Shown here: piece after piece, positions 39,879 through 63,284 of the stretch
Layout: each line of letters opens with the position of its first letter
Numbering within the stretch: position 1 is the first letter of the stretch
Source: Gammaproteobacteria bacterium
Lineage (GTDB): Bacteria; Pseudomonadota; Gammaproteobacteria; Eutrophobiales; Eutrophobiaceae
Length of the DNA: 64,000 bases
Reading direction: 5' to 3'
Assembly: GCA_965222155.1 (NCBI GenBank)
Contig: CBDCTH010000012.1
Location: forward strand, 1,440,001-1,504,000
Program-made: the position numbers and the translations under genes
Notes under the pieces: generated by a model
Seen by the model: the letters and a program-made list of their open reading frames with translations, nothing else
Told to the model about the DNA's origin: nothing
Databases searched by the model: none

Positions 39879-40388
39879 ATGCGCTTCCGGGGTCTCGTCT
39901 ACCGTGCACATAATCCACGGTGGGCCTGGGCGCCAACTTCCGGGGAGGGGGCGCGTCGCTATGGAGGACGCTTCAACCGGGCTGTAGTTCCGGCACTTTA
40001 TACGTCCCTGTCGCCGGTCACAGCCATGAGAGAGGCGAGTTCGGTAGGGCGACCACTACAACCGATCACATTGTGTGCCTACACGGTGGATGCCGAACCC
40101 ATCTTCGATATATTGGACCCCTTACAGCGAGAGGCTGAGGGGGTTACCGAGGCCGAATTCCATTGCCCGGACTGGGAACAGAAAATGCTGATGGGTATTA
40201 TCCCGGCATCGCAGGGTTTGGCTGAGCGGCTGAGTGCGGGCGGTTACGTGGGAATGCGGGTTCGGAGTTTCACGCCGGGAGCCACAGCAGATGATCTCAA
40301 TCTGGTGTTCTGGCGTTGGGGTAATCTTCGACCCAGCCGGGTCGTGCTGATTGACGATGAGGCACGTTTACCAAAGGATGAAATGTAA
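39879..40388 (+). CDS. RES-domain toxin
   Basis: YRAH.P.W, SGEGA..GGRFN, ALYTS..A.RE, VRS, NLVFW. Confidence 0.87.
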
Positions 40389-40397
40389 AGAATACCA

Positions 40398-40655
40398 GGC
40401 CCTGATTGTGGGCGAGCATGGTCCAAACACGTCTCAGCGTTTCAGCCGGCACGCGCGAACCGAATTGCGGTACGTCACGCTCAAGACAAGTACGGATAAA
40501 ATCCTGTCTTAATGCAAGGCTTTCGGTATCTGACGCGGCCAGAAAACTGTCAGGGAGACCACCGCGTAGCCAGAGCCGATCTTGACCGGGGACCAATGAT
40601 GGCGACCGCTGCTTGACGCTTCATAGCGCCAAGCACTTGTTTTTCAATATTACGC
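40398..40655 (-). pseudogene. Internally deleted AAA_14/DUF4143 ATPase remnant
   Basis: [23 protein letters not shown] fused to [15 protein letters not shown]...LERDVPQ...[14 protein letters not shown]. Confidence 0.75.
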
Positions 40656-40657
40656 CC

Positions 40658-40690
40658 CAGCAATTCCCGCTAAATCGAGGTCAATACAGT
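40658..40690. mobile_element. Solo end of MITE family B
   Basis: CAGCAATTCCCGCTAAATCGAGGTCAATACAGT matches the reverse complement of the 18566-18598 end. Confidence 0.7.
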
Positions 40691-40784
40691 TGCACACAAT
40701 AATAAATCGTAGTCCGGATCCATGTAGTCAAGAACGTCGTTGGATTTGGTTTTACTAGCTGTAAGTTGTGCCAGAAACGCACTG

Positions 40785-40919
40785 CGGAAGTTTCGAAAAT
40801 TTGATGACGGTTTCTTCGTCTGTTTTAAAAACGGCGTATTCGGAGCCGACTGAATTCTTGGTGAATGTAATTTCGGGAATGGCTGGTTTTATCTGTATGG
40901 TTTGACATGTATCGTTCAT
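40785..40919 (-). pseudogene. 5' remnant of Uma2 gene (680-bp deletion relative to the 60716-61483 copy)
   Basis: Junction AACGCACTG|CGGAAG joins sequence equivalent to 60668 and 61349. Confidence 0.85.
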
Positions 40920-40943
40920 TATCGTAAGACGATCTGTTAATTT

Positions 40944-41272
40944 TTACAGGAAATATATTAGCAGGGCAATAATGCCCGTATAGACGCCTATTGCCGATAT
41001 TGTCCATTTGATTTGTTCGGATTTCGCGGCTTCAATATCGTGTTTTGTGGCCAGTCTGAGTCCTTCAATATCTTGTTTTGTGGCCAGTCTTAGTCCTTCA
41101 ATATCTACTTTGAGTCCTTCAATAGTCCTTCAATATCGTGTTTTGTGGCCAGGTTGCTGTTGATCAGTTTTACCTGTTCGTCGGACAATGCTTCAGCCTG
41201 GGCCGTTGTGAAGCCGACATCGGTCATTCGTTGGATGAAGCGGTGAGTGTCAAAGGCGATGGCATTTGTCAT
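40944..41272 (-). pseudogene. Frameshifted DUF1640/CCDC90-like gene
   Basis: Near-identical to 61508-61825 but with an 11-bp tandem duplication AGTCCTTCAAT at 41113-41134. Confidence 0.85.
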
Positions 41273-41353
41273 GGTTGGATTATCCTCCATTATAATTTTA
41301 GCATATTGTTATGTGGGGCGGTAATTTGACTAGTTATAGCTGCTTTTTTATGG

Positions 41354-44600: not shown

Positions 44601-47600
44601 CATCCGTTTCAAAGGTTACCCCAGCGCTGACGCTGAACACGTGATGGTCGCCCACGTCCACGTCGATGGCCGACAGCTCGGCCACCTGCACCCGCCCGGC
44701 ACGGGTGTCGACGTCCTCGGCCATAACGCCGTCCGCCGCCGGGGCGACCCAATCGACCACCACGCCGGTCGGCCCCTCGTTAACGTCGGTCAGCGTCAGG
44801 GTCTGCTCAGCGCCGGTGAAGCTCAAGCCACCACTGTCGGTAGTGGTGATACGGAAGCGGTAGCTCGCCGCCGTCTCGTAATCCAGCGCCGCGCCTTGCT
44901 TCAGGTACAGCGCAGCACCGTCCGTTTCAAAGGTGACCCCAGCGCTGACGCTGAACACGTGACGGTCACCCACGTCCACGTCGATGGCCGACAGATCGGC
45001 TACCTTCACCCGCCCGGCACGGGTGTCGACGTCCTCGGCCATGACGCCGTCCAGCGCCGGGGCGACCCAATCGACCACCACGCCGGTCGGCCCCTCGTTA
45101 ACGTCGGTCAGCGTCAGGGTCTGCTCAGCGCCGGTGAAGCTCAAGCCGCCACTGTCGGTAGTGGTGATACGGAAGCGGTAGCTCGCCGCCGTCTCGTAAT
45201 CCAGCGCGGCGCCTTGCTTCAGGTACAGCGCAGCGCCGTCCGTTTCAAAGGTGACCCCAGCGCTGACGCTGAATGCGTGATGGTCGCCCACGTCCACGTC
45301 GATGGCCGACAGCTCGGCCACCTGCACCCGCCCGGCACTGACATCGACGTCCTCGGCCATAACGCCGTCCTCCGCCGGGACGACCCAATCGACCACCACG
45401 CCGGTCGGCCCCTCGTTGACATTGGTCAGCGTCAGCGTCAAGCCGGCGCGGGTCACGCTCAAGCCGCCACTGTCGGTGGCAGTGATGCTGAAGCGGTAGC
45501 TCGCCGCCGTCTCATAATCCAGCGCCGTACCCTGCTTCAGGTACAGCACAGTACCGTCCACCTCCAGGGCCGCTGTGCCGCTCAGCGCGAAGCGGTGGCG
45601 GTCGCCCGCATCCGCATCGATGGCCGACAGCTCGGCGAGCTTCACCCGCCCGGCGCCGGCGTCCACGTCCTCGGCGATGACGCCGTCCAGCGCCGGGACG
45701 ACCCAATCGACGACGACGCGACTCGGCGCGCTGTTGACGGGTTCGACCGGCTTGACCACCACCGGCGCGGCGGCCAGCACCGTGACTTTGGCCGTGTCAA
45801 ACCGAACATCGTCGTTCACGATGTTGCCTACCGTGAGCGTGTAGGTGGTCTCCTCGGTGGGGTGGACCCTGAGCTCGCTGGTACCGGGGTCGACCTCCTC
45901 GCCGATGTCCTCCCCCAGTTCACCACCGGTGACAGTCTGCTGATACACCTCGCCACCGGAAAGCGCCCACCTCAAGGTAAACGAACCATCCTCGTTCTCC
46001 TCCGCCCGGAAGTTATCGATCCCCGGTGCGGCCAGTGGCGGGACCTCCGGGACGTTGCGCCGTGCCCGGGACCTGACCACGCTGGTCGGACCGCGGTTGC
46101 CGGCGCGGTCGGTGGCGGCCCCCTGCTCCACCTCCACCGCCAGGTCGCCGCTGTCCCCGGTCGGCGTGAACACGCCACGGTAGACCTTGCCGCCCTGACT
46201 CGAGATCAACGCCGCCGGCTTGCTGCCCCCGGTCACCGTGACATCGGACAGGTCGAACCCCGTCACGACCTCGGTGAAGGTGAACTCCACCGTCACGTCC
46301 GGGTTCGCGTTGTCGAAGGTCTCCGGTTTGATGCCGATGGACACCTCCGGGGGCGTCGCATCCCAGACCGCCGTCCGGTTAACCGCCGCGGCCGGGCCGG
46401 GATTGCCCGCCAGGTCCTCTGCACTGTTCACCTGAACGGTGATCGTCACATCGCCGCTACCGTCCGGCGTCACCGCAACGTTGAATACCAGCCCCGGCGT
46501 TGTCGTCGCCCATCCGCTCAGTCTGGCGTTGCTCACCGACACATCATCAATGATGAAGCCTGTCACCGCCTCGTTGAACGTCAATGTCACCGTGAACGCG
46601 TCCGTGTCGTTGATATAGGCCGGTACGCCGGTCAGCGTCAGCGTCGGCGCCGCGGTGTCCACCGTGCCCACCGTGAAGGTGGACGTCCGGGCGCTGCCAA
46701 TCTCATTGCCGTGCGCGTCCTCCACCGTGCTCGCCCGCAGCGTCACCGTGTACTGACTCCCCGTCTCCAGCGGGTTGGCCGGGTCCATGGTGATGACGGT
46801 CTTGTCGTTGTTGATCCTCACCTGCCCCGTGCCCGCCAGGTCGGTGCCGTCGCCGTTTACCTTCTTCAACTCCACCGCCGCCGCCGCAGCCGCCGCATCC
46901 AGGGGGTCGTTGTTGGCCTGGCGCACCGGCTCGTCGAACTGCACCAGTACGTCCGTGTCCACGTCCGTTACCACGTCACCGTCGGCCGGGACGAACGTCA
47001 CCGTCGGCGCCGCCGCATCCACCGTGAAGGTGGCGCTGGCCGCGACCACAGCATTGTCCGCCACGTCCTCCACCGTGTTCGCCAGTACCTTGACCGTGTA
47101 ACTGCCCGCCGCCAAGTCACCGTCCGGGGTGATGGTGATGATCTTGTTGGCGGCGTCAATGGCCACCCGGCTGGCCACCGCCAGGTCAGCGCCCGCGTTG
47201 TCCTTCTTCAGCTCCACCACGGTATGCGCGTTGTCGTCGTGACGGGGTCATCGCTAGCAGGCGTATCACCTCGGTGAAGGTCGCGGTGACGCTGACGGCC
47301 GGCCCCGCGGTGTCCCCGTGCGCCGGTGAGAACGTCACCGTCGGCGCCGCCGCATCCACCGTGAAGGTGGCGCTGGCCGCGACCACAGCATTGTCCGCCA
47401 CGTCCTCCACCGTGTTCGCCAGTACCTTGACCGTGTAACTGCCCGCCGCCAAGTCACCGTCCGGGGTGATGGTGATGATCTTGTTGGCGGCGTCAATGGC
47501 CACCCGGCCGGCCACCGCCAGGTCAGCGCCCGCGTTGTCCCTCTTCAGCTCCACCACGGTATGCGCGTTGTCGTTCGTGACGGGGGCATCGCTACGCAGG

Positions 47601-50600
47601 CGTATCACCTCGGTGAAGGTCGCGGTGACGCTGACGGCCGGCCCCGCGGTGGCGCCGTGCACCGGCGCGAAGATCACCGTCGGCACGGACGCGTCCACCG
47701 TGAAGGTGGCGCTGGCCGCGGCCACGGCATTGCCGTAGGCATCCTCCACCGTGCTCCCCAGCACCTTGACCGTGTAGCTGCCCGCCGCCAAGTCACCGTC
47801 CGGGTCGATGGTGATGACCTTGTTGTCGGCGTCAATGGCCACCCGGTTGGCCACCGCCAGGTCAGCGCCCGTGCCGTCGGACTTCTTCAGCTCCACCGTC
47901 AGGTGCGCGTTGGTGTCCGTGATATCGCCGTTGTCCAGGTTGCGCACCGCCTCGGTGAAGGTCACCGTCACATTGGTGGCCGGCCCCGCGGTGGCGCCGT
48001 GCACCGGCGCGAAGGTCACCGTCGGCGCCGTCGTGTCCACCGTGAACACCGCACTGGCCGCGGCCACCGCGTTGCCCGCCATGTCCGCCACCGTGTTCGC
48101 CAACACCTTCACCGTGTAGCGGCCCGCCGCCAGCGAGTTCTGCGGGTTGATGGTGATGACGTGCCCGGCCAGGCTGACCGTGGCGTCCGTCGCCAGGTCG
48201 GGGCCCGTGCCATCCTTTCTCAACTCCACCGCGCCCGCTGCCGCGCCCGCACCGAAGACACTGCCAGCCGCCGTCTGTATTACCTCGTCGAACTCCACCA
48301 GCACATTGACGCCGGCGCCCACCGTGTCCCCGTCCGCCGGCACGAACGTTACCCCCGGCGCATCCGCATCCACCGTGAAGGTCGCCGACTGCTCGCTGTC
48401 CTGCTCGTTGCCCTGCGCATCCTCTACCGTGTTCGCCAGCAGCGTCACCGTGTAGCTGCCCGGCGCCAGTGCATTCTGCGGGTCGATGGTGATGACCCGC
48501 TTCTGGACGTCGATGCTGACCCGCCCCGCGCCCGCCAGGTCGGCGCCGGCCCCGTCTTTCTTCAACTCCACCGCCGCCACCGCGTCCACGTCCTCCAGCG
48601 GGTCGCCGTTGGCCTTGCGCACCGGCTCATTAAAGCGCACCTCCACGTCCGTGTTCACGTCGCCCACCGTGTCCCCGTCCGCCGGCACGAACGTTACCCC
48701 CGGCGCATCCGCATCCACCGTGAAGGTCGCCGACTGCTCGCTGCCCTGCTCGTTGCCCTGCGCATCCGCTACCGTGTTCGCCGGCAGCATCACCGTGTAG
48801 CTGGCGCCGCTCTCCAGCGCGTCCGCCGGGTTGATGGTGATGACCGTCTTGGCATCGTTGACCGTCACCGCCGCCGTTGTCGTCAGGTCGGTGTTGTTGC
48901 CATCGCCCACGCGCACCAGCGTCAGCGCAGCCGTGGCCGCGGCCGCAGTCAGGGCATTGCCGTCGGCCTGGCGCACCGCCTCGTCGAACTGCACCAGTAC
49001 GTTCACGTCCACGTCGCCCGTCGTCGTCCCGTCCGCCGGCGTGAACGTTACCCCCGGCGCCGCCGCATCCACCGTGAAGGTGGCGCTGGCCGTGGCCACG
49101 GCATTGTCGTAGGCGTCCTCCACCGTGCTCCCCAGCACCTTGACCGTGTAACTGCCCGCCGCCAAGTCACCGTCCGGGGCGATGGTGATGATCTTGTTGG
49201 TGGCGTCAATGGCCACCCGGTTGGCCGCCGCCAGGTCAGCGCCCGTGCCGTCCTTCTTCAGCTCCACCACGGTATGCGCGTTGTCGTCCGTGACGGGGCT
49301 GTCGCTGAGCAGGCGTATCGCCTTGGTGAAGGTCGCGGTGACTCTGACGCCCGGCCCCGCGGTGGCGCCGGTCGCCGGGCTGAACGTCACCGTCGGCGCG
49401 GTCGCATCCACCGTGAAGGTGGCGCTGGCCGTGGCCACGGCGTTGTCCGCCACGTCCTCCACCATGCTCGCCAGCACCTTGACCGTGTAGTCGCCCGCGG
49501 CCAGGTCCGCGCCCGGGTTGATGGTGATGACCGTCTTATTGATGTTGATGCTCACCTGCCCCGATCCCGCCAGGTCGGGGCCCGTGTCGTCGGACTTCTT
49601 CAGCTCCACCGCCAGGTGCGCGTTGGCGTCGTCGAGATCGGTGTCATTGAGGTTGCGGATGGCCTCGGTGAAGGTCACCGTCACATTGGTGGCCGGCCCC
49701 GCGGTGGCGCCGTGCGCCGGTGAGAACGTCACCGTCGGCGCCGCCGCATCCACCGTGAAGGTGGCGCTGGCCGCGACCACCGCATTGCCGTAGGCGTCCT
49801 CCACCCTGCTCGCCAGCACCTTGACCGTGTAGCTGCCCGCCGCCAGGTCGGCGGCCGGGTTGATGGTGATGACCTTGTTGGCGTCGTCGATGCTCACCTG
49901 CCCCGAGCCCGCCAGGTCGGGGCCCGTGCCGTCCTTCTTCAACTCCACCACCCGGTGCGCGTTGGTGTCGTCGAGATCGGTGTCATCGAGGTTGCGGATG
50001 GCCTCGGTGAAGGTGGCAGTGACGCTGACGGCCGGCCCCGCGGTGGCGCCGGTCGCCGGTGAGAACGTCACCGTCGGCGCCGCCGCATCCACCGTGAAGG
50101 TGGCGCTGGCCGCGGCCACGGCATTGCCGTAGGCATCCTCCACCGTGCTCCCCAGCACCTTGACCGTGTAGCTGCCCGCCGCCAGGTCACCGTCCGGGTC
50201 GATGGTGATGACCTTGTTGTCGGCGTCAATGGCCACCCGGTTGGCCACCGCCAGGTCAGCGCCCGTGCCGTCCTTCTTCAACTCCACCACCCGGTGCGCG
50301 TTGGTGTCGTCGAGATCGGTGTCATCGAGGTTGCGGATGGCCTCGGTGAAGGTGGCGGTGACGCTGACGGCCGGCCCCGCGGTGGCGCCGTGCGCCGGTG
50401 AGAACGTCACCGTCGGCACGGACGCGTCCACCGTGAAGGTGGCGCTGGCCGCGACCACCGCATTGCCGTAGGCGTCCTCCACCGTGTTCGCCAGCAGCTT
50501 GACCGTGTAACTCCCCGCCGCCAGGTCACCGTCCGGGGTGATGGTGATGACCGTCTTATTGTTGTTGATGCTCACCTGGTTGGCCGCCGCCAGGTCAGCG

Positions 50601-53600
50601 CCCGTATTGTCCTTCTTCAACTCCACCACCCGGTGCGCGTTGGTGTCGTCGAGATCGGTGTCATCGAGGTTGCGGATGGCCTCGGTGAAGGTGGCGGTGA
50701 CGCTGACGGCCGGCCCCGCGGTGGCGCCGTGCGCCGGTGAGAACGTCACCGTCGGCGCCGCCGCATCCACCGTGAAGGTGGCGCTGGCCGCGACCACCGC
50801 ATTGCCGTAGGCGTCCTCCACCCTGCTCGCCAGCACCTTGACCGTGTAGCTGCCCGCCGCCAGGTCGGCGGCCGGGTTGATGGTGATGACCTTGTTGGCG
50901 TCGTCGATGCTCACCTGCCCCGAGCCCGCCAGGTCGGGGCCCGTGCCGTCCTTCTTCAACTCCACCACCCGGTGCGCGTTGGTGTCGTCGAGATCGGTGT
51001 CATCGAGGTTGCGGATGGCCTCGGTGAAGGTGGCAGTGACGCTGACGGCCGGCCCCGCGGTGGCGCCGGTCGCCGGTGAGAACGTCACCGTCGGCGCCGC
51101 CGCATCCACCGTGAAGGTGGCGCTGGCCGCGGCCACCGCATTGCCGTAGGCATCCTCCACCGTGCTCCCCAGCACCTTGACCGTGTAGCTGCCCGCCGCC
51201 AGGTCACCGTCCGGGTCGATGGTGATGACCTTGTTGTCGGCGTCAATGGCCACCCGGTTGGCCACCGCCAGGTCAGCGCCCGTGCCGTCGGACTTCTTCA
51301 ACTCCACCACCCGGTGCGCGTTGGTATTGTCGAGATCGGTGTCATCGAGGTTGCGGATGGCCTCGGTGAAGGTGGCAGTGACGCTGACGGCCGGCCCCGC
51401 GGTGGCGCCGGTCGCCGGTGAGAACGTCACCGTCGGCGCCGCCGCATCCACCGTGAAGGTGGCGCTGGCCGCGACCACCGCATTGTCCGCCCCATCCTCC
51501 ACCTTGTTCGCCAGCACCTTGACCGTGTAGTCGCCCGCCGCCAGGTCGGCGGCCGGGTCGATGGTGATGACCTTGTTGGCGTCGTCGATGCTCACCTGCC
51601 CCGAACCCGCCAGGTCAGCGCCCGTGCCGTCGGATTTCTTCAGCTCCACCGTCAGGTGCGCGTTGGTGTCCGTGATATCGCCGTTGTCCAGGTTGCGCAC
51701 CGCCTCGGTGAAGGTCACCGTCACATTGGTGGCCGGCCCCGCGGTGGCGTCATGCGCCGGCGCGAAGGTCACCGTCGGCGCCGCCGCATCCACCGTGAAG
51801 GTGGCGCTGGCCGCGACCACCGCATTGTCCGCCCCATCCTCCACCTTGTTCGCCAGCACCTTGACCGTGTAGTCGCCCGCCGCCAGGTCGGCGGCCGGGT
51901 CGATGGTGATGACCTTGTTGGCGTCGTCGATGCTCACCTGCCCCGAACCCGCCAGGTCAGCGCCCGTGCCGTCGGATTTCTTCAGCTCCACCGTCAGGTG
52001 CGCGTTGGTGTCCGTGATATCGCCGTTGTCCAGGTTGCGCACCGCCTCGGTGAAGGTCACCGTCACATTGGTGGCCGGCCCCGCGGTGGCGTCATGCGCC
52101 GGCGCGAAGGTCACCGTCGGCGCCGTCGTGTCCACCGTGAACACCGCACTGGCCGCGGCCACCGCGTTGCCCGCCATGTCCGCCACCGTGTTCGCCAACA
52201 CCTTCACCGTGTAGCGGCCCGCCGCCAGCGAGTTCTGCGGGTTGATGGTGATGACGTGCCCGGCCAGGCTGACCGTGGCGTCCGTCGATGACCCGTGCCA
52301 TCCTTTCTCAACTCCACCGCGCCCGCTGCCGCGCCCGCACCGAAGACACTGCCAGCCGCCGTCTGTATTACCTCGTCGAACTCCACCAGCACATTGACGC
52401 CGGCGCCCACCGTGTCCCCGTCCGCCGGCACGAACGTTACCCCCGGCGCATCCGCATCCACCGTGAAGGTCGCCGACTGCTCGCTGTCCTGCTCGTTGCC
52501 CTGCGCATCCTCTACCGTGTTCACCGGCAGCGTCACCGTGTAGCGGGCGCCGCTCACCAGCGCCGCCGCCGGGTTGATGGTGATGACCGTCTTGGCCGGG
52601 TTGACCGTCACCAGCGCCGCCGCCGTCAGGTCGGTGTTGCTGCCATCGCCCACGCGCACCAGCGTCAGCGCGGCCGTGGCCGCGGCCACAGTCAGGGCAT
52701 TGCCGTCGGCCTGGCGCACCGGCTCGTCGAACTGCACCAGTACGTCCGTGTCCACGTTGCCGGTCTTGGTCCCATGCGCCGGGACGAACGTCACCGTGGG
52801 CGCGGCCGTGTCCACCGTGAAGGTCGCCGACTGCTCGGCGCCCTGCTCGTTGCCCTGCTCGTCCTCTACCGTGTTCACCGGCAGCGTCACCGTGTAGCGG
52901 GCGCCGCTCACCAGCGCCGCCGCCGGGTTGATGGTGATGACCGTCTTGGCCGGGTTGACCGTCACCAGCGCCGCCGCCGTCAGGTCGGTGTTGCCGCCAT
53001 CGCCCACGCGCACCAGCGTCAGCGCGGCCGTGGCCGCGGCCACAGTCAGGGTTGCCGTCGGCCTGGCGCACCGCCTCGTCGAACTGCACCAGTACGTCCG
53101 TGTCCACGTTGCCGGTCTTGGTCCCATGCGCCGGGACGAACGTCACCGTGGGCGCGGCCGTGTCCACCGTGAAGGTCGCCGACTGGCTCGCGCCCTGCTC
53201 GTTGCCCTGCTCGTCCTCCACCGTGTTCGCCGGCAGCGTCACCGTGTAGCGGGCGCCGCTCACCAGCGCGGCCGCCGGGTTGATGGTGATGACCGTCTTG
53301 GCCGGGTTGACCGTCACCAGCGCCGCCGCCGTCAGGTCGGTGTTGCTGCCATCGCCCACGCGCACCAGCGTCAGCGCGGCCGTGGCCGCGGCCACAGTCA
53401 GGGATTGCCGTCGGCCTGGCGCACCGCCTCGTCGAACTGCACCAGTACGTCCGTGTCCACGTTGCCGTCTTGGTCCCATGCGCCGGGACGAACGTCACCG
53501 TGGGCGCGGCCGTGTCCACCGTGAAGGTCGCCGACTGCTCGGCGCCCTGCTCGTTGCCCTGCTCGTCCTCTACCGTGTTCGCCGGCAGCGTCACCGTGTA

Positions 53601-56600
53601 GCGGGCGCCGCTCACCAGCGCCGCCGCCGGGTTGATGGTGATGACCGTCTTGGCCGGGTTGACCGTCACCAGCGCCGCCGCCGTCAGGTCGGTGTTGCTG
53701 CCATCGCCCACGCGCACCAGCGTCAGCGCGGCCGTGGCCGCGGCCACAGTCAGGGCATTGCCGTCGGCCTGGCGCACCGCCTCGTCGAACTGCACCAGTA
53801 CGTCCGTGTCCACGTTGCCGGTCTTGGTCCCATGCGCCGGGACGAACGTCACCGTGGGCGCGGCCGTGTCCACCGTGAAGGTCGCCGACTGCTCGGCGCC
53901 CTGCTCGTTGCCCTGCTCGTCCTCTACCGTGTTCACCGGCAGCGTCACCGTGTAGCGGGCGCCGCTCACCAGCGCCGCCGCCGGGTTGATGGTGATGACC
54001 GTCTTGGCCGGGTTGACCGTCACCAGCGCCGCCGTCAGGTCGGTGTTGCTGCCATCGCCCACGCGCACCAGCGTCAGCGCGGCGTGGCCGCGGCCACAGT
54101 CAGGGGTTGCCGTCGGCCTGGCGCACCGGCTCGTCGAACTGCACCAGTACGTCCGTGTCCACGTTGCCGGTCTTGGTCCCATGCGCCGGGACGAACGTCA
54201 CCGTGGGCGCGGCCGTGTCCACCGTGAAGGTCGCCGACTGCTCGGCGCCCTGCTCGTTGCCCTGCTCGTCCTCTACCGTGTTCACCGGCAGCGTCACCGT
54301 GTAGCGGGCGCCGCTCACCAGCGCCGCCGCCGGGTTGATGGTGATGACCGTCTTGGCCGGGTTGACCGTCACCAGCGCCGCCGCCGTCAGGTCGGTGTTG
54401 CTGCCATCGCCCACGCGCACCAGCGTCAGCGCGGCCGTGGCCGCGGCCACAGTCAGGGCATTGCCGTCGGCCTGGCGCACCGGCTCGTCGAACTGCACCA
54501 GTACGTCCGTGTCCACGTTGCCGGTCTTGGTCCCATGCGCCGGGACGAACGTCACCGTGGGCGCGGCCGTGTCCACCGTGAAGGTCGCCGACTGCTCGGC
54601 GCCCTGCTCGTTGCCCTGCTCGTCCTCTACCGTGTTCACCGGCAGCGTCACCGTGTAGCGGGCGCCGCTCACCAGCGCCGCCGCCGGGTTGATGGTGATG
54701 ACCGTCTTGGCCGGGTTGACCGTCACCAGCGCCGCCGCCGTCAGGTCGGTGTTGCTGCCATCGCCCACGCGCACCAGCGTCAGCGCGGCCGTGGCCGCGG
54801 CCACAGTCAGGGCATTGCCGTCGGCCTGGCGCACCGCCTCGTCGAACTGCACCAGTACGTCCGTGTCCACGTTGCCGGTCTTGGTCCCATGCGCCGGGAC
54901 GAACGTCACCGTGGGCGCGGCCGTGTCCACCGTGAAGGTCGCCGACTGCTCGGCGCCCTGCTCGTTGCCCTGCTCGTCCTCTACCGTGTTCGCCGGCAGC
55001 GTCACCGTGTAGCGGGCGCCGCTCACCAGCGCCGCCGCCGGGTTGATGGTGATGACCGTCTTGGCCGGGTTGACCGTCACCAGCGCCGCCGCCGTCAGGT
55101 CGGTGTTGCTGCCATCGCCCACGCGCACCAGCGTCAGCGCGGCCGTGGCCGCGGCCACAGTCAGGGCATTGCCGTCGGCCTGGCGCACCGGCTCATTAAA
55201 GCGCACCTCCACGTTTGTATTCACGGTGGCCACCGTGTCCCCGTCCGCCGGGACGAACGTCACCGTGGGCGCGGCCGTGTCCACCGTGAAGGTGGCGCTC
55301 TGGTCGCTGTCTATCTGGTTGCCCTGCTCGTCCTCTACCGTGTCCTGAAGCAGCGTCACCGTGTAGCTGCCCGGCGCCAGTGCATTCTGCGGGTCGATGG
55401 TGATGACCGTCTTATCGTTGTTGATGCTGACCCGCCCCGCGCCCGCCAGGTCGGTACCGTCGCCGTTTACCTTCTTCAACTCCACCGCCGCCACCGCGTC
55501 CGCGTCCTCCAGCGGGTCGCCGTCGGCCTGGCGCACCGGCTCGTCGAACTGCACCAGTACGTCCGTGTCCACGTCGCCCGTCTTGGTCCCGTCCGCCGGG
55601 ACGAACGTCACCGTCGGCGGGGTGGTGTCATCCGTGATTGTGCCGGTGGCAACGGTATCGCCCAGCGCGGCCCAGCTGGGTAAACCGCCGGCGGGCGCAC
55701 TCACTTCCACCGTGAAGGTCTCAGGGTTTTCGACCTCGGTGTCTATCAGGGCCGGTACCTGAATCGTCGCGCTGGTCTGGCCGGCCGGGATGGTCAGACT
55801 GGCGTTGCTCTGCGGCGTGTAGTCGGGTGAGGCCCCCGTGCTGAGCGCCGCATTCGCCCCCGTGCCGTCCGTAGTTTCCCACTTCAAGATCAGGTCCAAG
55901 GACGCGGCCGTGCTCAGGCTCACCGTGAATTCAACATCGGTGCCCTCGCTCGCGGTCGCATCCGCGATGGACACCGTGGCCGTGTCATTGTCCGTAATCG
56001 TACCGACCGCCTCGGCGTCGTTTATTGTCACTTGAGTGTCGGGAAAATCGACGGCAGACGGAAAACCGCCGGCCGGCGCGGCAATAATCGCCTTGAAGGT
56101 CTCAGCGCCCTCGGCCAGGGTGTCCTCGGTAGTCTGCACCGTGAATGTCCCAGTCCTGGTGCCCGTCGCAATGATCACGCTGCCGCCCTGATTCTCCGGG
56201 TAGTCAGCGGGCGCCGTCGCGCTATCATCCTGCAGACTCCAGTCCACGGTCACGTCTGTGGGCCAGACTATGCCCAGAGTCACGGTGAACGTCATGGGCT
56301 GGCCTTCCTCCGCGCTCGCATCCGCAATGGACAGGGTGGGGGTATCGTCGTTACGGATGGTACCCGTGGCCTCGGTATCCACCAACGTCAGTGATGCGCC
56401 GGCCGGGAAACCGGCGCCCGGCTCGCGCAGCGTCACGATGAACGTCTCGTCCTGTTCCTTGTCATGGTCCTCGGTCGTCTGCACCGTGATCGTCCCGGCG
56501 CTAGCGCCGGCCGGGATAGTCAGACTGCCGTTACTCACCGGCGTGTAGTCGGCCTTGTCGCCGGTGCTCGAGTCCGCGCTGAGTGCGGGGTGGTCCCCCG

Positions 56601-59205
56601 TGGCGTCGTCCCCGGTTTGCCAGTCCAGGCTCACGTCCGCTGCCACAGGGTGGCTCAACGTTACTGTAAACTCGACAGCCTCCCCCTCTTCCGCGGCCGC
56701 ATCCGCGAGGGTAATCCTGGCGTCATCATTGCGGATTGTCCCCGTCGCCGGTTTGCCAATGAACACAGGCGAGTTCACTCCTTCTATGATAACGGTGAAG
56801 GTCTCGTCCGGTTCGGGGTTGGGGTCCTCGCGGGTATGCACCACGAGCGGGATGGCGGTCTGGCCGGCCGGGATGGTCAGCCACCGTTTGTATCGTCGCA
56901 GATAGTCGCTGGAGCTTGCCGTGCCATCCTGAGTGAACCAAATTATGTCCACGTCTACGAGCAGAATTTTGTCCAGCGTCGCCTCGAACGTGACAGTATC
57001 GCCCTCGGCGGCGGCGGCGTCCGCGATGGAAAGCGTCGCCGGGACGACGTTGCGAATCGTGACCCTGGCTGTGTTCTTATTGTTCTTATACCTCACGCCT
57101 TGTCCCGCGGGTAATGCGGGCACCTTGAATGTGACCGTGAAGTATTCGCCGTCATCCACTTCAAGGTCATACAAGGCTCTTCCAATAGAATAACTCTGGT
57201 CAGTGACGTTTGGCTCTATGGGGTATCCCGTTTCAAAGTAATCAGGACGAATATTAGCATTACTAATATGACCCCTGAACCAAGCATCATTTTGGTCCGT
57301 CGTGCCATGCGCCGAAGTTACACTAGCCGCCTTCACTGCTGTTAGAATCGGGTGCGACAGGACTATCGACAATTTGATTTCTTGTCCCTCGGGTATGGTT
57401 ACGTCTTGTAACGATATTTCCAGATCGTCATTGTCAATGGTGCCGACGACCTGGGTTGTCATCAGCAACACCCCGGCCGGCAACGAGGGTGCGCTCAGAT
57501 TGACATAAAACGTCTCGTGCGGCTCACTCACCTCGTCCTCAAGCGTCGCCACCGTTATCGTGCCTTCGGTGGCGCCGGCAGCAATGGTCAGGCTACCGTT
57601 GCTTTGCGCCGTGTAGTCATCAACGGTGTTCGGGTCATTATCGGTGGTCGCGGGGTTGTCCCCCGTGGTGTCAGCGGTTTCCCAGCGCAGGGTTACAGCC
57701 GACGACACAGCCTGGGACAGTCTGACGGGGAACTCGATGTCGTTACCCTCCTGCGCATGGGCATTGCCAACGTGAACCGTCGTACGCGTGGCTGCGGAGC
57801 CCGTGCCGAAATCGAGACTCCAGGCGGACGGCGCTGTATAACTGAAGCCCTGAAACGACTGGTGTCTGCCACGGCTGGGATCATGATACGGACGCTGGCC
57901 GAAGCCCGGCTCATCCACTATGACGACTATCCTGGGCGGCTTGCCGTCCGTATCAGGGGTGCCGGTGACGCTGAATTGCCCGCTGTCTGTCTCGCCCGCC
58001 TCGATTTCCGTCTCACCGGATACGGTCTTCCGGCCGTTCACCAGCCCGTCCTGGGCTTCGGCGCGCCATCTCACCTTTGTGGCGCGCAGCACACCCTGGG
58101 CAATTTTCACCTTGAAGTCGACAGCCGTGCCTACAGTCAAGGTGGCGTTACCGACGCGCGCCAGCGACACCTCAAGAGGCGCATGGGAAAAATACGCGTT
58201 CTCCACGTTGGCCAGACCGGCGAACAAGCCCGCCGGCAGGCTCGTGAGTGCCGGGTTATTTTGAACCAGGAGATGTTTCAACTTGCTCAGGCCGTTGAGC
58301 AGGGTTGCCGGCAGGCTGGTCAGGTGGTTATCCGATAAATCCAGGGATTCAAGATTGCTCAGGCTGTTGAGCAAGGTTGCCGGCAGGCTGGTCAGGTGGT
58401 TATCCGATAAATCCAGACCTTGAAGATTGCTCAGGCCGTTGAGCAAGGTTGCCGGCAGGCTGGTCAGGTGGTTATGCGTTAAATCCAGGGATTCAAGATT
58501 GCTCAGGCCGTTGAACAGGGTTGCCGGCATAGTCAGACTCTTATCCTTTATATTCCCGTTAGCCCCTAAATTCAGGACTCTAAGCTTGCTCAGGCCGTTG
58601 AACAGGGTTGCCGGCAGGCTGGTCAGGGCGTTGCCATATAAATTCAGAGTTTGAAGCTCGCTCAGGCCGTTGAACAGGGTTGCCGGCAGGTCAGTCAGTC
58701 GGTTCTGCTGTAAGTACAGGTTTTGAAGATTGCTCAGGTCGTTGAACAGGGTTGCCGGCAAGTCAGTCAGTCGGTTATTCTGTAAATACAGGTTTTGAAG
58801 CTTGCTCAGGCCGGCGAAATCGCCCGCTTTCAAGGAGTTAATATTCCTTCTGCCAAGATCGAGCGTAATCAAATTCGCCAGGTGGTCAGCGGTGACATCC
58901 TCGCAACGGCTGACGCCCGACAGGGTGTTGACGATTTCGTCCTGCACCGTCCGCGTACGGTCGCAGACCCCCGAGGCGGTCTGGGCGGCGGCGGGTTCGA
59001 GGAGCGCCAGCGCGCCGAGGCAACACAGGAGTGCGGCCAACCCGGCGCCGACCGTCGGGCGCACCCGCACCGCTCTCAGGCTGCCACCCTGCCCGGAAAA
59101 TCGGGGGGGGGGGGGGTAAGGTGCCGGGCGCAGTTGTAGCGCCCGCGCAGCGATCATGAAGGGCTTCCGGCCAACACTTGAATACGTGTGAACTTGGGTT
59201 TTCAA
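41662..59205 (-). CDS. Giant (~5,850 aa) surface adhesin: LRR head, Calx-beta x6, Ig-like x~28, cadherin x~8, C-terminal autotransporter-like beta-barrel; broken by several frameshifts in this assembly
   Basis: ORFs 54100-59205, 53046-54182, 52204-53127, 47186-53479 and 41662-47220 continue one domain series across frames; signal-like ..LLCCLGALALLEPAAAQ; terminal W; alternative ATG at 59157. Confidence 0.88.
43500..45710 (-). repeat. Tandem 318-bp cadherin-domain repeats (~7 near-identical units)
   Basis: Period 318 (43712, 44030, 44348, 44666, 44984, 45302); LDYET, TDSGGL, DVNE motifs. Confidence 0.92.
46660..55620 (-). repeat. About 26 tandem SbsA/Big_5-like Ig domains (339-354-bp units, several subtypes)
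   Basis: Recurrent PTVTF.P..G...F.E.VR...VELKK...ITI.P...L..G.YTV...V.D..GN...SATFTVD; eight near-identical 354-bp units at ~52455-55270. Confidence 0.92.
58200..58970 (-). repeat. 72-bp (24-aa) leucine-rich repeats with Cys-containing N-cap
   Basis: GTTGCCGG anchor at 58304, 58376, 58448, 58520, 58607, 58679, 58751; LPATLFNGLSxLxxLxLxxNxLT. Confidence 0.92.
59103..59116 (-). repeat. C14 homopolymer in the 5' coding region of the giant adhesin
   Basis: 14 consecutive G on the + strand; reads TAC CCC CCC CCC CCC CGA (Y-P-P-P-P-R), currently in frame. Confidence 0.9.
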
Positions 59206-59272
59206 GAACCCCCGTCAGTTCAGGGCAAGAAGCTGGTAAAACGGCAGCAGTTTCCGCGCATTTTATCAGCTC

Positions 59273-59327
59273 CCCGGGCACGCGGGCATCCTGTCCTCGT
59301 GGAGGGCGGGACGCCCTCCCTCCCGGG
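59273..59327. repeat. REP-like palindromic module, also carried inside MITE B at ~18441-18496
   Basis: GGGCATCCTGTCCTCGTGGAGGGCGGGACGCCCTCCCTCCC versus GGGCATCCTGCCCTCGTGGAGGGCGAGACGCCCTCCCTCCC. Confidence 0.75.
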
Positions 59328-59472
59328 CATAACAGTTATCGAAAGCGATTTTAACATGCGGCAACAACCCCCTACTCAACCATATTAAAATCATATTGTA
59401 CTATCATTGTAATAGCAAGTGGGAACCTGCAGTGGGCAATTCAATTTGTTGACAACATGTCATTATTCATTG

Positions 59473-60429
59473 ATGATTTATAAAACACGCAAAACCGAAA
59501 GCGTTGTCATTGACAATGAACATGCCGACCGACGCATCGATAATTTTCTGCTCGCTTTCCTGAAACCCATACCCAAAAGTCGCATCTACCAGATGCTGAG
59601 ACGTGGCGAGGTCAGGGTAAACAAGGGTCGCATCAAGCCCGACTACCGCCTTCAAGCGGGAGATATTATCCGCATCCCCCCGCTATTTGAGCAACCGGCC
59701 GGAATTCCCGACAAACCGCCGGCGCGCCTGGTTGAAATGATAAAGACCTGCATTATGTATGAGGATAGGCGGCTTATAGTCATAAATAAACCCGCCGGCC
59801 TGGTTGTACATGCAGGTACGGGAAGCGCTTTTGGTATTATCGAGATCCTGCGCGAGTTATATCGGCAAAAGCAGGACCTGCATTTAATTCATCGACTGGA
59901 TAAAGAGACTTCCGGTTGTCTGTTGATAGCTAAAAACATGACAATCCTGCGTCAGGTCAACCAGGCTCTGAAAAGCGGCGCCGTGCATAAAGAATATCAG
60001 GCCCTGCTGCAAGGCCGGTTACACGAAAAAAAAATCACGGTGAACACCCCGTTGCAACGTCATAGAAATGATTACGGCGAAGGACAGGTCAGGGTTGATG
60101 GCGCCGGCAAGACTGCCATATCCAAGTTTATGACAGTCAGGGTTTACAGGGATGCAACTCACGTCAGGGTCAGGATTGCCACCGGCCGAACTCATCAAAT
60201 CAGGGTCCACGCCGGTTCCATCGGCCATCCCCTTGCCGGTGACAAAAAATACGGAGACAGGGAATTTAACAAAAAAATGTACGCAGCCGGCCTGAAACGC
60301 ATGTTTTTACACGCCGGCAAACTCGCCGTACCCGAATTGAAAAAAACCGGAGAACATCAATTTATCGCGCCGTTGCCGGCGGACCTGGAGGCGGTATTGA
60401 CCCGGATTGCTCATCAAAGCACTTCGTAA
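59473..60429 (+). CDS. rluC: 23S rRNA pseudouridine synthase RluC
   Basis: RIDNFL S4 domain, NKPAGL.VH, HRLDKETSG, TGRTHQIRVH, MFLHA; start approximate. Confidence 0.92.
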   Translation: MIYKTRKTESVVIDNEHADRRIDNFLLAFLKPIPKSRIYQMLRRGEVRVNKGRIKPDYRLQAGDIIRIPPLFEQPAGIPDKPPARLVEMIKTCIMYEDRRLIVINKPAGLVVHAGTGSAFGIIEILRELYRQKQDLHLIHRLDKETSGCLLIAKNMTILRQVNQALKSGAVHKEYQALLQGRLHEKKITVNTPLQRHRNDYGEGQVRVDGAGKTAISKFMTVRVYRDATHVRVRIATGRTHQIRVHAGSIGHPLAGDKKYGDREFNKKMYAAGLKRMFLHAGKLAVPELKKTGEHQFIAPLPADLEAVLTRIAHQSTS

Positions 60430-60449
60430 TTCCAAGTCGGACTCACCGC

Positions 60450-60622
60450 AATGCCCCTGCCGTGTCGAGGCGTAATGGTAGGAGAAGACACCTCAAGGCT
60501 TGCTGTAAGTCGGGAAGCGTTCAGGATTTGGCCCTGATTGTGGGCGAGCATGGTCCAAACACGTCTCAGCGTTTCAGCCGGCACGCGCGGACCGAATTGC
60601 GGTATGTCACGCTCAAGATAAG
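60450..60622 (-). pseudogene. Second AAA_14/DUF4143 fragment
   Basis: LERDIPQ...MLAHNQGQILNASRLTASLEVSSPTI on the minus strand; overlaps and extends the 40398 remnant. Confidence 0.7.
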
Positions 60623-60715
60623 TTTAGATTTGGTTTTACTATCTGTAAGTTGTGCCAGAAACGCACTGGTGTCTTTAACATTCAGGAATGCATTAGATCA
60701 TTATATTGAACTGTT

Positions 60716-61483
60716 CTATATGCCTTCTATTTGGGGAGAGGGTATGTTGGTCTGCTGTTGGATGAAGTATTCGGTGATTGCCTGGATTTCGACGTCGTTT
60801 GGTGGTTTTTTATGGCAGTGGGTAAGTATGTCCTGGACCAGCTCGTCGTTTAATATTGGCAGGCAGTTCGAAACCTTGATTGTTTGCAGGTTATCGTTCT
60901 GAAGGTCTTTGAATTCTACGGTAATTGGTGTAGACACATCGTCTGTAAAGTTGATCTGCCAGTGTTCTTTAACGCCCAGCTCTTGATATTTGTTCAGTTT
61001 TGATCCATTAATCGATGTTACACCGACTTCAACAACAAGGTCCGGACCGTGATCGTTGATGAATTTTGTGCAGGCTGACGTGCCTTTTTCTCTGGCCTCA
61101 AGGAAGGCTTCGGAATAGTTTCCGATGTAATAACATTCATCGGGTTCAGGCCCGGTACTGTAGCCGCCCCTGGAGCCGCTTAACCGGGTTGATCCCAGTT
61201 CTGAATAGGATAGTTCCATACGGCAGGCGGCGTAGGAAATTATTCGTTCTGTTTTTTTTCCTAAATATTCGTGTATATAGCTGGGAGTCATAAGCATTAT
61301 CAGCCCGCGGTCAGGATCCAGGTAGACTCGCGGATATATTTTTTCCAGCGGAAGTTTCGAGAATTTGATGACGGTTTCTTCGTCTGTTTTAAAAACGGCG
61401 TATTCGGAGCCGACTGAATTCTTGGTGAATGTAATTTCGGGAATGGCCGGTTTTGTCTGTATGGTTTGACATGTATCGTTCAT
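60716..61483 (-). CDS. Uma2 (DUF820) endonuclease-like protein
   Basis: LDPDRGLIMLMTPSYIHE, EPDECYY, GPDLVVEV, YQELGVKEHW. Confidence 0.85.
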   Translation of the reverse strand: MNDTCQTIQTKPAIPEITFTKNSVGSEYAVFKTDEETVIKFSKLPLEKIYPRVYLDPDRGLIMLMTPSYIHEYLGKKTERIISYAACRMELSYSELGSTRLSGSRGGYSTGPEPDECYYIGNYSEAFLEAREKGTSACTKFINDHGPDLVVEVGVTSINGSKLNKYQELGVKEHWQINFTDDVSTPITVEFKDLQNDNLQTIKVSNCLPILNDELVQDILTHCHKKPPNDVEIQAITEYFIQQQTNIPSPQIEGI

Positions 61484-61507
61484 TGTCGTAAGACGATCTG
61501 TTAATTT

Positions 61508-61825
61508 TTACAGGAAATATATTAGCAGGGCAATAATGCCCGTATAGACGCCTATTGCCGATATTGTCCATTTGATTTGTTCGGATTTCGCGGCTTCAAT
61601 ATCGTGTTTTGTGGCCAGTCTGAGTTCTTCAATATCGTGTTTTGTGGCCAGTCTTAGTCCTTCAATATCTACTTTGAGTCCTTCAATATCGTGTTTTGTG
61701 GCCAGGTTGCTGTTGATCAGTTTTACCTGTTCGTCGGACAATGCTTCAGCCTGGGCCGTTGTGAAGCCGACATCGGTCATTCGTTGGATGAAGCGGTGAG
61801 TGTCAAAGGCGATGGCATTTGTCAT
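61508..61825 (-). CDS. DUF1640/CCDC90-like membrane-anchored coiled-coil protein
   Basis: AFDTHRFIQRM...GFT..QAEA head, repeated ATKHDIE beta-layer/coiled-coil units, C-terminal TM helix; GGAGG RBS. Confidence 0.85.
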   Translation of the reverse strand: MTNAIAFDTHRFIQRMTDVGFTTAQAEALSDEQVKLINSNLATKHDIEGLKVDIEGLRLATKHDIEELRLATKHDIEAAKSEQIKWTISAIGVYTGIIALLIYFL

Positions 61826-61944
61826 GGTTGGATTATCCTCCATTATAATTTTAGCATATTGTTATGTGGGGCGGTAATTTGAATAGTTATAGCTGCTTTT
61901 TTATGGCAGGGCAACCGCATACTTTTATATATCATAAGGAAGGG

Positions 61945-62150
61945 CAGGGCAAACGCATACTTTTGAATTCAGATGTTTTTGCCCGATTCCGTCATTCTGG
62001 CGCAGGCCAGAATCCAGTGAATAACCCTTCATTACCCTGAGCCTGCGCTGTTGTTTGACTGGATGCTGGCATTCGCCAGCATGACGGGCGGTGTTGTCCG
62101 GTTGGTTTCCTGTCTTCTGCAACAGAATCCAAAAGTATGCGGTTGCCCTG
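61945..62150. mobile_element. 206-bp MITE family A, 10-bp TSD TAAGGAAGGG
   Basis: Same TIRs as 9363-9568; TSD 61935-61944 and 62151-62160. Confidence 0.92.
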
Positions 62151-62157
62151 TAAGGAA

Positions 62158-62182
62158 GGGGACGGATTTGAAATCCGTCCCC
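62158..62182. repeat. GGGGAC..GTCCCC palindrome (variant of the module inside MITE B)
   Basis: GGGGACGGATTTGAAATCCGTCCCC. Confidence 0.65.
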
Positions 62183-62458
62183 GGAGAGTCCGCGTATGGG
62201 TGTACGCCAAAGCCTGCCCCCCTGCTTACAACCGCAGGGGCAAGCTCTGTATGGAGTTGAGCAGGGGGAAGGCGCACATCAAAAATCCGGCGCGATCATC
62301 ACATCCATTGGTGAAATATACGGGTTAGCCCGGACTTCTCACCACGGGATTGAATAAGGCCGCATCCTAAAATTTTTATGAGAACAGCAAAAACAGCAAC
62401 GAATGTTAACGATATCCTGTTATTATTGCTTGCCCACTGATAAATACAAAATCGTAAT

Positions 62459-62530
62459 TATAGTGTCTATTTCGGCAAAGATGGTGATGCGATTATCGTG
62501 TTACTAACCGGTGGCGGTTTACCCCATTGA
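62459..62530 (+). pseudogene. Remnant of RelE/HigB-like addiction-module toxin (HI1419 type)
   Basis: YSVYFGKDGDAIIVLLTGG resembles the GYRxYFxxDGxxxxxLLxGG C-terminal motif. Confidence 0.5.
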
Positions 62531-62552
62531 AACCCCTATGGCTTATCCGCTG

Positions 62553-63284
62553 TTATCGCCTGGCTCCGTCCATCAGCGCCTTCATGTCCTTGACAGCCTG
62601 ATAGAGGCCGGAGAATACCGCCCTGGCTATGATGGAATGGCCGATGTTCAGTTCGGCAACCTGTTTGAGCGCAGCAATCGGATTGACGTTGTGGTAATGC
62701 AGTCCGTGTCCGGCGTTGATTTGCAGTGGTGTTTTCGCTGCATATTCCACTGCCCGGACTATCTTGTTGTATTCAACGGCGAGCGCTTCCGGGCCGTCGC
62801 AATCCGCATAGTGGCCTGTATGAATTTCTATCATGTCTGCGTCGGCATTGACCGCCGCGTCTATCTGGCCGGCATCCGCATCGATAAACAAAGATATTTT
62901 GGAACCGCTCGCCTGCAGCCTGGCACAGGCAACGTTGATCCTTTCCTGCTGGCCGGCCACTTCCAGGCCGCCCTCCGTGGTCAACTCTTCCCGCCGCTCG
63001 GGGACAAAACAGCAAAAATCCGGCTGGAATTTCTCTGCGAGCGCCAACATTCCATCAGTGACCGCCATTTCCAGGTTGATCGGTATCGTCAGCACGTCTT
63101 TCAACATCTCCACGTCCCTTTCCTGGATATGCCGGCGGTCCTCGCGCAGGTGTATCGTGATTGAGTCAGCGCCGGCCTGTTCAGCTATCAGGGCAGCCTG
63201 GACCGGTTCGGGATATCGGGTCAGCCGCGCCTGGCGCAGCGTCGCTACATGGTCGATGTTAACCCCCAGTTTTATCGGGTTCAT
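62553..63284 (-). CDS. pdxJ: Pyridoxine 5'-phosphate synthase
   Basis: LGVNIDHVATLRQAR, HLREDRRHI, TTEGGL, NAGHGL, ELNIGH. Confidence 0.97.
   Translation of the reverse strand: MNPIKLGVNIDHVATLRQARLTRYPEPVQAALIAEQAGADSITIHLREDRRHIQERDVEMLKDVLTIPINLEMAVTDGMLALAEKFQPDFCCFVPERREELTTEGGLEVAGQQERINVACARLQASGSKISLFIDADAGQIDAAVNADADMIEIHTGHYADCDGPEALAVEYNKIVRAVEYAAKTPLQINAGHGLHYHNVNPIAALKQVAELNIGHSIIARAVFSGLYQAVKDMKALMDGARR

Follow-up and report, generated by a model that had tools for sequence, protein, structure and literature searches.

In this work we analysed a stretch of 64,000 nucleotides (nt), hereafter the window, from the genome of a Gammaproteobacteria bacterium (assembly GCA_965222155.1, contig CBDCTH010000012.1, positions 1,440,001 to 1,504,000), and within it a giant gene of about 17.5 kb on the minus strand (41662–59205), which is read in four open reading frame (ORF) pieces and encodes a protein of about 5,800 amino acids. 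Near its N-terminus this protein carries an array of nine leucine-rich repeat (LRR) units, U0 to U8 (58207–58872, minus strand; amino acids 112–333 of the ORF 54100–59205). A preliminary description of this DNA had compared the array with the variable lymphocyte receptors (VLRs) of agnathans and proposed that constant anchors permit an exchange of cassettes or a change of copy number that diversifies ligand specificity. We find that seven of the nine units have a nearly identical framework and differ widely at the codons of their putative binding face. The array is probably a set of young tandem duplicates in a fixed gene, forming the putative ligand-binding head of a giant surface adhesin in an uncultured gammaproteobacterium, with the face under strong diversifying selection.

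The LRR array and the gene that carries it

The in-frame unit table of the array contains seven units of 24 amino acids, one of 29 (with 15 additional bp) and one of 25. Tandem Repeats Finder detects a 72-bp period in two stretches, at 58283–58529 (3.4 copies, 91% matches, score 424) and at 58567–58813 (3.4 copies, 83% matches, score 254). The unit table and the repeat search thus confirm the tandem 24-residue units announced for this place in the preliminary description, and all eight face strings that it quoted, including KHLLVQN, are found in the translation. All units are on the minus strand. The first, U0 (LITLDLGRRNINSLKAGDFAGLSK; 58801–58872), is divergent, its framework nucleotide identity to U1–U7 being just 50–56%, and the last, U8 (LKHLLVQNNPALTSLPAGLFAGLAN; 58207–58281), is a divergent unit of 25 residues, after which there is no cysteine-rich C-terminal cap. 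Units U1 to U3 (58585–58800; U1 58729–58800, U2 58657–58728, U3 58585–58656) are 24 residues long, with the faces QNLYLQN, QNLYLQQ and QTLNLYG and a framework identity among themselves of 89–93%. The youngest units, U5 to U7 (58282–58497; U5 58426–58497, U6 58354–58425, U7 58282–58353), are also 24 residues long, with the faces ESLDLTH, QGLDLSD and ESLDLSD; their framework identity reaches 94–98%, and a 42-nt exact repeat occurs within them at offset 72. U4 (LRVLNLGAN-GNIKD-KSLTMPATLFNGLSN; 58498–58584), placed between these two groups, is the 29-residue unit, in which the 15-bp insertion seen earlier follows the conserved Asn; this inserted block has a low predicted local distance difference test score (pLDDT; 58) in the AlphaFold2 (AF2) model of the head.

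Units U1–U7 fit the typical class of LRRs, L1, L4, L6, N9, P15 and L22 being invariant and position 19 being F or L; one part of a published account gives the consensus of this class as LxxLxLxxNxLxxLpxxoFxxLxx (PMC2946307). The preliminary description was right about the class, but its statement that such repeats are characteristic of animal proteins is too narrow, as matches to bacterial proteins are many. Pfam recognizes LRR_8 in the 306-residue head with E = 7.6e-70. The AF2 single-sequence model of the head is of moderate confidence (pLDDT 68.1, predicted template modelling score 0.71) and places a strand at unit positions 3–7, which starts at position 3 in U0–U2 and U5–U8. Because the AF2 strands occupy these positions, the variable codons would lie on and beside the face of the beta-sheet. 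The claim that face positions vary around constant anchors holds, the sites that vary being those marked x in LxxLxLxxN, on the face formed by the beta-strands. As had also been noted, the array is less GC-rich (0.527) than the stalk that follows it (0.691 over 41662–55700), the flanks being at 0.49. GC content at third codon positions (GC3) is 0.67 in the LRR part, 0.91–0.97 in the Big_5 repeats of the stalk and 0.45–0.67 in seven other genes of the window; among these comparison genes rne, sppA and rluC were named by family matches, and the ORF at 62553–63284 is presumably pdxJ.

The array is preceded by a two-cysteine N-terminal cap (CDRTRTVQDEIVNTLSGVSRCEDVTADHLANL; 58873–58965, minus strand), in which C81 and C101 have a 21-residue spacing, and by a probable Sec signal peptide that extends from V46 or V48 to A74 (58984–59070, minus strand). 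This putative leader, RVRPTVGAGLAALLCCLGALALLEPAAA-Q, was read by eye from the translation and has a basic n-region, a hydrophobic core and an AAA-Q end. Between it and an in-frame upstream ATG (59155–59157) the coding strand contains a run of 14 C (59103–59116, minus strand). Four public sequencing runs from two studies (X1 to X4) contain the stretch; one short-read contig of X1 (depth 124.9) has five extra G in the 14-C tract, which is also where contigs of X2 and X4 stop. Because the X1 contig differs from the assembly, the tract is either variable in length or mis-called in the assembly. With a start at the GTG at 59068–59070, it would lie in the 5' leader, outside the codons. Further upstream is a match to the sigma-70-like promoter consensus (TTGCTA-17-TATGAT; 59390–59418, minus strand), one site being found where 0.3 is expected. 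Other contigs of X1–X3, from the same samples and with depths of 9–72, match the leader and the cap within 58892–59017 with 8–14 differences per ~120 bases and then diverge, which suggests that they are homologous heads of co-occurring relatives.

The first ORF piece of the gene (54100–59205, minus strand, 1701 amino acids) comprises the leader, the cap, the LRR head, four Calx-beta domains and the first Big_5 repeats. The other three pieces (53046–54182, 47186–53479 and 41662–47220, minus strand) encode a stalk of Big_5, Big_12/13 and cadherin domains as identified by Pfam, with 16 stretches of Big_5 within one ORF piece. At the DNA level the region 41662–55700 contains tandem repeats of 354 bp (9.1 copies, 93%), 339 bp (15.5 copies, 81%) and 318 bp (7.0 copies, 93%), and the GC3 of the stalk repeats is 0.9 or higher. 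Three clusters of frame breaks lie inside the stalk repeats, at about 54100–54182, 53046–53479 and 47186–47220; at those inspected, one base is missing in comparison with the near-identical repeat copy next to it. Single-base deletions of this kind, in near-identical GC-rich repeats, mark the usual site of long-read consensus errors.

The C-terminal ~320 residues (41665–42624, minus strand), ending in ...STANW, are a candidate for an autotransporter-like beta-barrel. In the ESM Atlas the last 408 residues (about 41665–42888) have a feature score of 0.97, and 30 of 30 matches fall in clusters of autotransporter beta-domains. A terminal W is found in this protein and in the four homologues, out of four, whose C-terminal end was printed (L113–L116; L112 was left out of this count, as its printed tail ran past the match), so that two autotransporter features are present, a putative N-terminal Sec leader and a terminal aromatic residue. 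Of 22 genus relatives, 20 have the same C-terminal domain, and this genome has 17 stretches that match it, spread over roughly ten places. In the relatives many giant ORFs end in it, an example being G009 (C1:800862–801779), where ORF lengths go up to 21,139 amino acids; proteins that share this domain are numerous and very large in the genus. In type V topology the N-terminal part of the passenger is the part furthest from the cell. The predicted order of the gene runs from a Sec-type leader through the two-cysteine cap, nine LRRs and a stalk of ~5,000 amino acids to an autotransporter-like C-terminal barrel, and, if the assignment of the barrel holds, the N-terminal LRR horseshoe would be displayed at the tip furthest from the cell.

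The giant gene and an Xre/RES pair are carried by an insertion of 20,167 bp (39290–59456), which separates rne from rluC. This region is an insertion because its flanks join directly in two relatives: in G019, the closest species representative (RluC 92% identical), position 39289 meets 59457 with 93–95% nucleotide identity, and in G014 position 39288 meets 59460. The insertion is flanked by the 8-mer ATGTCATT at 39282–39289 and 59457–59464, of which G019 has a single copy, and no integrase, transposase or phage gene is found among its listed ORFs. At its left end an Xre/MbcA/ParS-type antitoxin (39513–39863, plus strand; Xre_MbcA_ParS_C, E = 7e-08) adjoins a RES-domain toxin (39879–40388, plus strand; E = 5.5e-23). 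The stretch 40357–41290 contains partial copies of accessory ORFs from the right of rluC (60462–61843), where a Uma2-like putative endonuclease (60716–61483) and a CCDC90-like coiled-coil protein (61508–61843) are encoded; a 33-bp tandem repeat (41030–41152) is part of the coiled-coil copy inside the insertion, and the stretch 60415–62553 is missing from G014. The GC content is 0.49 in the flanks and climbs to 0.69 in the stalk.

Substitution pattern, donor cassettes and array variants

Proportions of nonsynonymous (pN) and synonymous (pS) differences were counted by the Nei-Gojobori method over the 21 pairs of U1–U7. The face was taken as codons 2, 3, 5, 7, 8 and 10, position 10 having been added after the data were seen; the set of five codons without it is a priori and consists of the x positions of LxxLxLxxN. 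Framework codons 1, 4, 6 and 9 are identical in all seven units (CTT, CTG, TTA and AAC), and in the anchor, whose DNA had been called almost invariant, 25 of the 30 columns of codons 14–23 are indeed invariant. At the same framework residues U0 and U8 are encoded differently, so this choice of codons is not imposed by the LRR fold. For the framework of U1–U7, pS and pN are both 0.121, and pN at the face is 0.53 with six codons or 0.51 with five, so that face pN exceeds framework pS by a factor of 4.2, or 4.8 without U4. Two units differ on average at 15.95 nucleotides, of which 9.43 fall in the six face codons, a concentration reached by only 14 of 100,000 random six-codon sets. The contrast is illustrated by U3 and U7, which share 98% of their framework nucleotides and 44% of their face nucleotides. 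Framework nucleotide identity among U1–U7 ranges from 78 to 98%, and amino acid identity over whole units from 0.50 to 0.88 with a mean of 0.65. In the arrays of relatives the face/framework ratio is 1.1 in G022 (five units), 1.4 in G013 (five units), and 2.1 (four units) and 1.4 (three units) in G002, with a framework pS of 0.28–0.66 versus 0.12 here. These values indicate that the units of the window's array are young and that their faces have diverged like those of old arrays.

The genome searched for donor cassettes comprises 4,553,329 bases in 12 contigs, with an estimated completeness of 100% and an estimated contamination of 7.28%. The anchor 21-mer quoted in the preliminary description has four exact occurrences, and with up to three mismatches allowed it has four matches genome-wide, all within the array. 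The 771-bp array DNA matches itself alone (one of 15 candidates scored), as does the 306-residue head protein (one of eight candidates scored), which makes it the sole LRR head of this genome. Because all three sequences match this locus alone, we conclude that the genome holds no silent donor cassettes; the other or silent cassettes anticipated earlier were thus sought by pattern, by DNA and by protein, with the locus itself as the only match. In public collections, in scans from which the window's own records were possibly left out, the 21-mer has four metagenome and two genome loci, all of them isolated chance matches of 21–24 nt, and no LRR unit appears in the translated surroundings of these six loci. 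Pfam detects neither LRRNT nor LRRCT, with thresholds of E <= 0.01 and E <= 5.

The contigs of the public runs match the covered pieces of the array with 0 differing letters. These pieces come from X1 (57900–58313, 58387–58467, 58500–58615, 58589–58689 and 58661–59300), from X2 and from X3 (58303–58404), the listed pieces of X4 lying outside the array. The contigs break inside the repeats and do not show rare variants, and stretches without a listed piece, such as about 58468–58499 in X1, are uninformative. Within these bounds the contigs of the four runs show no in-frame gain or loss of a unit, which runs counter to the cassette exchange or copy-number change proposed earlier. One joint, 58314 to 58491, skips 176 bases, a number that is a multiple of neither 72 nor 3. 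Its shorter side is just 27 letters long, and we discount it as probably due to a repeat artefact or to sequence from another organism. A second joint, 58821 to 58975, represents a diverged homologue and not a deletion, because 150 other letters stand between its two sides.

Explanations of the pattern

These observations are best accounted for if U1–U7 arose by recent tandem duplication of one 72-bp unit, their framework being near-identical even at synonymous sites. Replacement at the solvent-exposed codons 2, 3, 5, 7, 8 and 10 would since have run at about four to five times the neutral rate, and such speed would be the signature of diversifying selection on the putative binding surface. 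The gene itself would be fixed in the germline, with no assembly or editing from donor cassettes.

Several points weigh against this reading. The ratio of nonsynonymous to synonymous rates compares paralogous units within one gene, each of 72 bp, and with about 15 synonymous framework sites per pair its error is wide. The equality of pN and pS in the framework means that purifying selection on the framework is not visible over this short time. No other strain's allele was found among 40 relatives, database proteins and public collections, and concerted evolution could give a similar picture. If the 1-bp deletions in the stalk are real and not long-read errors, the head would be separated from its anchor, or the gene would be in decay. 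As for the barrel, the last 512 residues have no Pfam family at E <= 5; a sequence search of the PDB returned 0 chains at E <= 10; a profile of six homologues gave three chance-level PDB matches (E 0.43–0.64); PF03797 is matched by none of the six aligned homologues, with one OMP_b-brl match at E = 0.025; and the AF2 single-sequence fold of the C-terminus is unusable (pLDDT 32.3). Because the Pfam, PDB and profile searches were null and the fold failed, we regard the C-terminal anchor as a candidate, autotransporter-like and not proven.

Concerted evolution is the strongest of the other explanations, although we consider it rather unlikely. It is the evolutionary form of the exchange proposed in the preliminary description, and holds that unequal crossing-over and gene conversion between 72-bp units preserve the likeness of the frameworks, alter unit number and order from strain to strain, and in this way reshuffle the faces while selection keeps them different; it and the young-duplicate reading are not mutually exclusive. 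In its favour, the units share exact in-register repeats of 42, 31, 29 and 29 nt, their 72-bp period preserves the reading frame, and LRR solenoids can gain or lose units. The units are also mosaic: the states of codons 24 and 19 occur in all four combinations, and U6 has the CTTCAA of U1–U3 with a remainder like that of U5 and U7. Precedents exist in fungal NOD-like receptor (NLR) repeats (PMC4986451) and in LasAI (PMC3708911), as far as parts of these two accounts describe them. However, no variant in unit number was seen in the contigs, which do not show rare variants, and the sole joint internal to the array is the one that skips 176 bases. Moreover, the invariant codons 1, 4, 6 and 9 are interleaved with the saturated face codons at a resolution of 3 bp, and conversion tracts cannot explain this interleaving because they would copy the faces too; nor does the genome contain a second array with which to exchange. 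Conversion that skips the interleaved framework codons was also considered and rejected: these codons hold ~3.3 synonymous sites, at which zero changes are compatible with a framework pS of 0.12, and therefore no special mechanism is needed. Unit exchange or a change of copy number may have acted as a slow evolutionary process.

That the gene is decaying or mis-assembled, with real frame breaks and face variation due to relaxed constraint in a pseudogene, appears improbable. The three clusters of frame breaks in the stalk, the equality of pN and pS in the framework and the difference in poly-C length between the assembly and a short-read contig are in keeping with it, but relaxed constraint would spread the changes evenly, whereas here they are concentrated at the face to the degree reached by 14 of 100,000 random sets. 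Besides, the frame stays open throughout the 1701-residue first piece and thus the whole head, the head region is exact in the short-read contigs, and the breaks are of the kind and in the place expected of long-read errors.

A programmed assembly like that of VLRs, in which the expressed array would be copied from silent LRR cassettes elsewhere in the genome, is very improbable. The resemblance of the pattern and the presence of VLR-derived scaffolds among many LRR matches of Foldseek are all that recommends it, and a donor could lie in unassembled DNA, given 12 contigs and 7.28% contamination. Against it stand the genome searches, which by 21-mer, array DNA and head matched the locus alone, the lack of LRRNT and LRRCT in the Pfam searches, the absence of unit-number variants from the contigs and the array pieces of X1–X3 with 0 differing letters. 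The preliminary description had made its proposal depend on two points, other cassettes in the genome and differences of the array among related genomes; no other cassette was found, and, as no related genome carries the array, the second point can be judged from the contigs alone, whose covered pieces are identical. A diversity-generating retroelement requires a template repeat ~90% identical to the variable region, from which the face codons would be rewritten; although up to three adjacent bases differ between near-identical units (for example GGT versus TCC in U6 and U7), there is hardly any chance of such an origin, as the genome has no second copy of the array DNA (no search was aimed at a reverse transcriptase) and the changes are not limited to possible template adenines, all codon positions and all bases being variable.

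Capped LRR modules and comparison with known systems

No orthologous array was found among 40 relatives, the best match being 38% identical, and no database protein exceeds 50% identity to the head. Matches at E <= 1e-10 are nonetheless frequent: 1411 of 8000 scored proteins of 537–2000 amino acids and 295 of 2723 scored proteins of 2978–5000 amino acids. Many of the matching proteins are encoded on megabase contigs and most are without a name, the four named ones being from uncultured prokaryotes (metagenome-assembled genomes). The cap motif C.RT..V...I......C..VT..HL precedes LRR modules at two of seven loci of relatives and in seven of seven database proteins inspected, up to nine times per protein, as in P0124 with nine caps (49% identity) and P0004 with four (46%). 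In G002 (C1:3136225–3143760) a 3365-residue ORF contains about seven cap-plus-LRR modules in series. A direct transfer from animals was considered and set aside: because cap and module occur together in many bacterial proteins, the idea is unneeded. The gene points to an abundant and largely unnamed class of LRR modules with a cysteine cap, which uncultured bacteria carry on giant surface proteins.

Among 121 large proteins, a set that includes three copies of the window's own protein, the median identity between units is 0.15 for the face against 0.53 for convex positions. Such arrays therefore generally pair a constant anchor with a variable face, and the pattern itself is a property of the fold. 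It is accentuated in the window's array, with 0.22 at the face and 0.82 at convex positions, one other protein alone having a higher convex value. What is distinctive here is the degree, since synonymous sites have barely changed and the faces are already as diverged as those of old arrays; the gene is of an ordinary kind, notable for how sharp its selection pattern is, and offers a clean natural example for the speed at which an LRR binding surface is re-specified.

The head matches 361 distinct PDB sequences at E <= 1e-5, led by typical-class proteins; the best are IGFALS (7wrq, E = 2.2e-51), LRRC15 (9oib), SHOC2, LGR4/5 and the Nogo receptor, and the bacterial ones include Leptospira LIC11098 (4u08) and LIC10831 (4u06). 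With the head model, Foldseek returns LRR solenoids at a probability of 1.00, including Toll, TLR7, designed LRRs and VLR-derived repebodies. With the typical class the array shares the 24-residue period, Asn 9, Pro 15, Phe or Leu at position 19 and, by prediction, a solenoid whose face is made of beta-strands. Animal proteins of this class have LRRNT, whereas here there is a bacterial two-cysteine cap and no LRRCT, and here the array opens a multi-domain surface protein of ~5,800 amino acids. The array also resembles the capped LRR modules of large, mostly unnamed surface proteins known from genomes and metagenomes, where the same cap motif is followed by 24-residue units in company with Calx-beta, cadherin or immunoglobulin-like (Ig-like) domains; the differences are that the window's gene has a single module and that its units are much younger.

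Agnathan VLRs are made from an incomplete germline gene and many silent donor LRR cassettes by a copy-choice process that an AID/APOBEC-type deaminase drives, so that assembled arrays vary among cells or individuals, and possess cysteine-rich LRRNT and LRRCT caps and a connecting peptide. The array has in common with them an LRR solenoid, a constant framework and diversity on the concave face. In contrast, it belongs to a bacterial germline gene that lacks donor cassettes as well as LRRNT, LRRCT and a connecting peptide, and the contigs of the four runs show neither somatic nor population variants. An LRR array with a constant framework and a variable face, found in a bacterium, does not imply diversification like that of VLRs.

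The repeats of transcription activator-like (TAL) effectors combine near-identical repeat DNA with a few hypervariable codons on the binding surface. The same combination relates the array to the WD, ANK and TPR repeats of fungal NLRs, for which a portion of the published account reports high internal conservation, positive selection at the interface and polymorphism in repeat number (PMC4986451). The two differ in repeat type, organism and role of the protein; the variation in repeat number and the exchange between family members that this portion documents are unobserved here, and the identity criterion of 85% that it gives (PMC4986451) is above the mean of our units, which is 0.65, with 0.88 as the highest value. 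By analogy, the head might be a bacterial counterpart of the fungal hypervariable-repeat receptors and of TAL effectors, acquired with the island, possibly switched on and off, with a young array that recombination between its near-identical frameworks continually reshuffles under very strong diversifying selection on the face, although we find this doubtful. If it were true, strains that share a habitat would differ in the order of their units, in their faces and in the partners that they bind, and the diverging contigs with a leader and cap ~90% identical would be alternative heads.

Finally, LasAI/HyvI of 'Candidatus Liberibacter asiaticus' has, in the part of its description that concerns us, near-identical LRR-like repeats, and its isolates are reported to differ by inserted and deleted repeats (PMC3708911). 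LasAI and the window's protein both have an autotransporter-type passenger, which in our case is a candidate, with near-identical tandem LRR-like repeats in acquired DNA. LasAI differs, as described there, by long units unlike typical LRRs, by its location in a prophage and by having no signal peptide (PMC3708911), whereas the window's gene, in an island with no phage genes among its listed ORFs, combines canonical 24-residue units with a giant Ig-like stalk.

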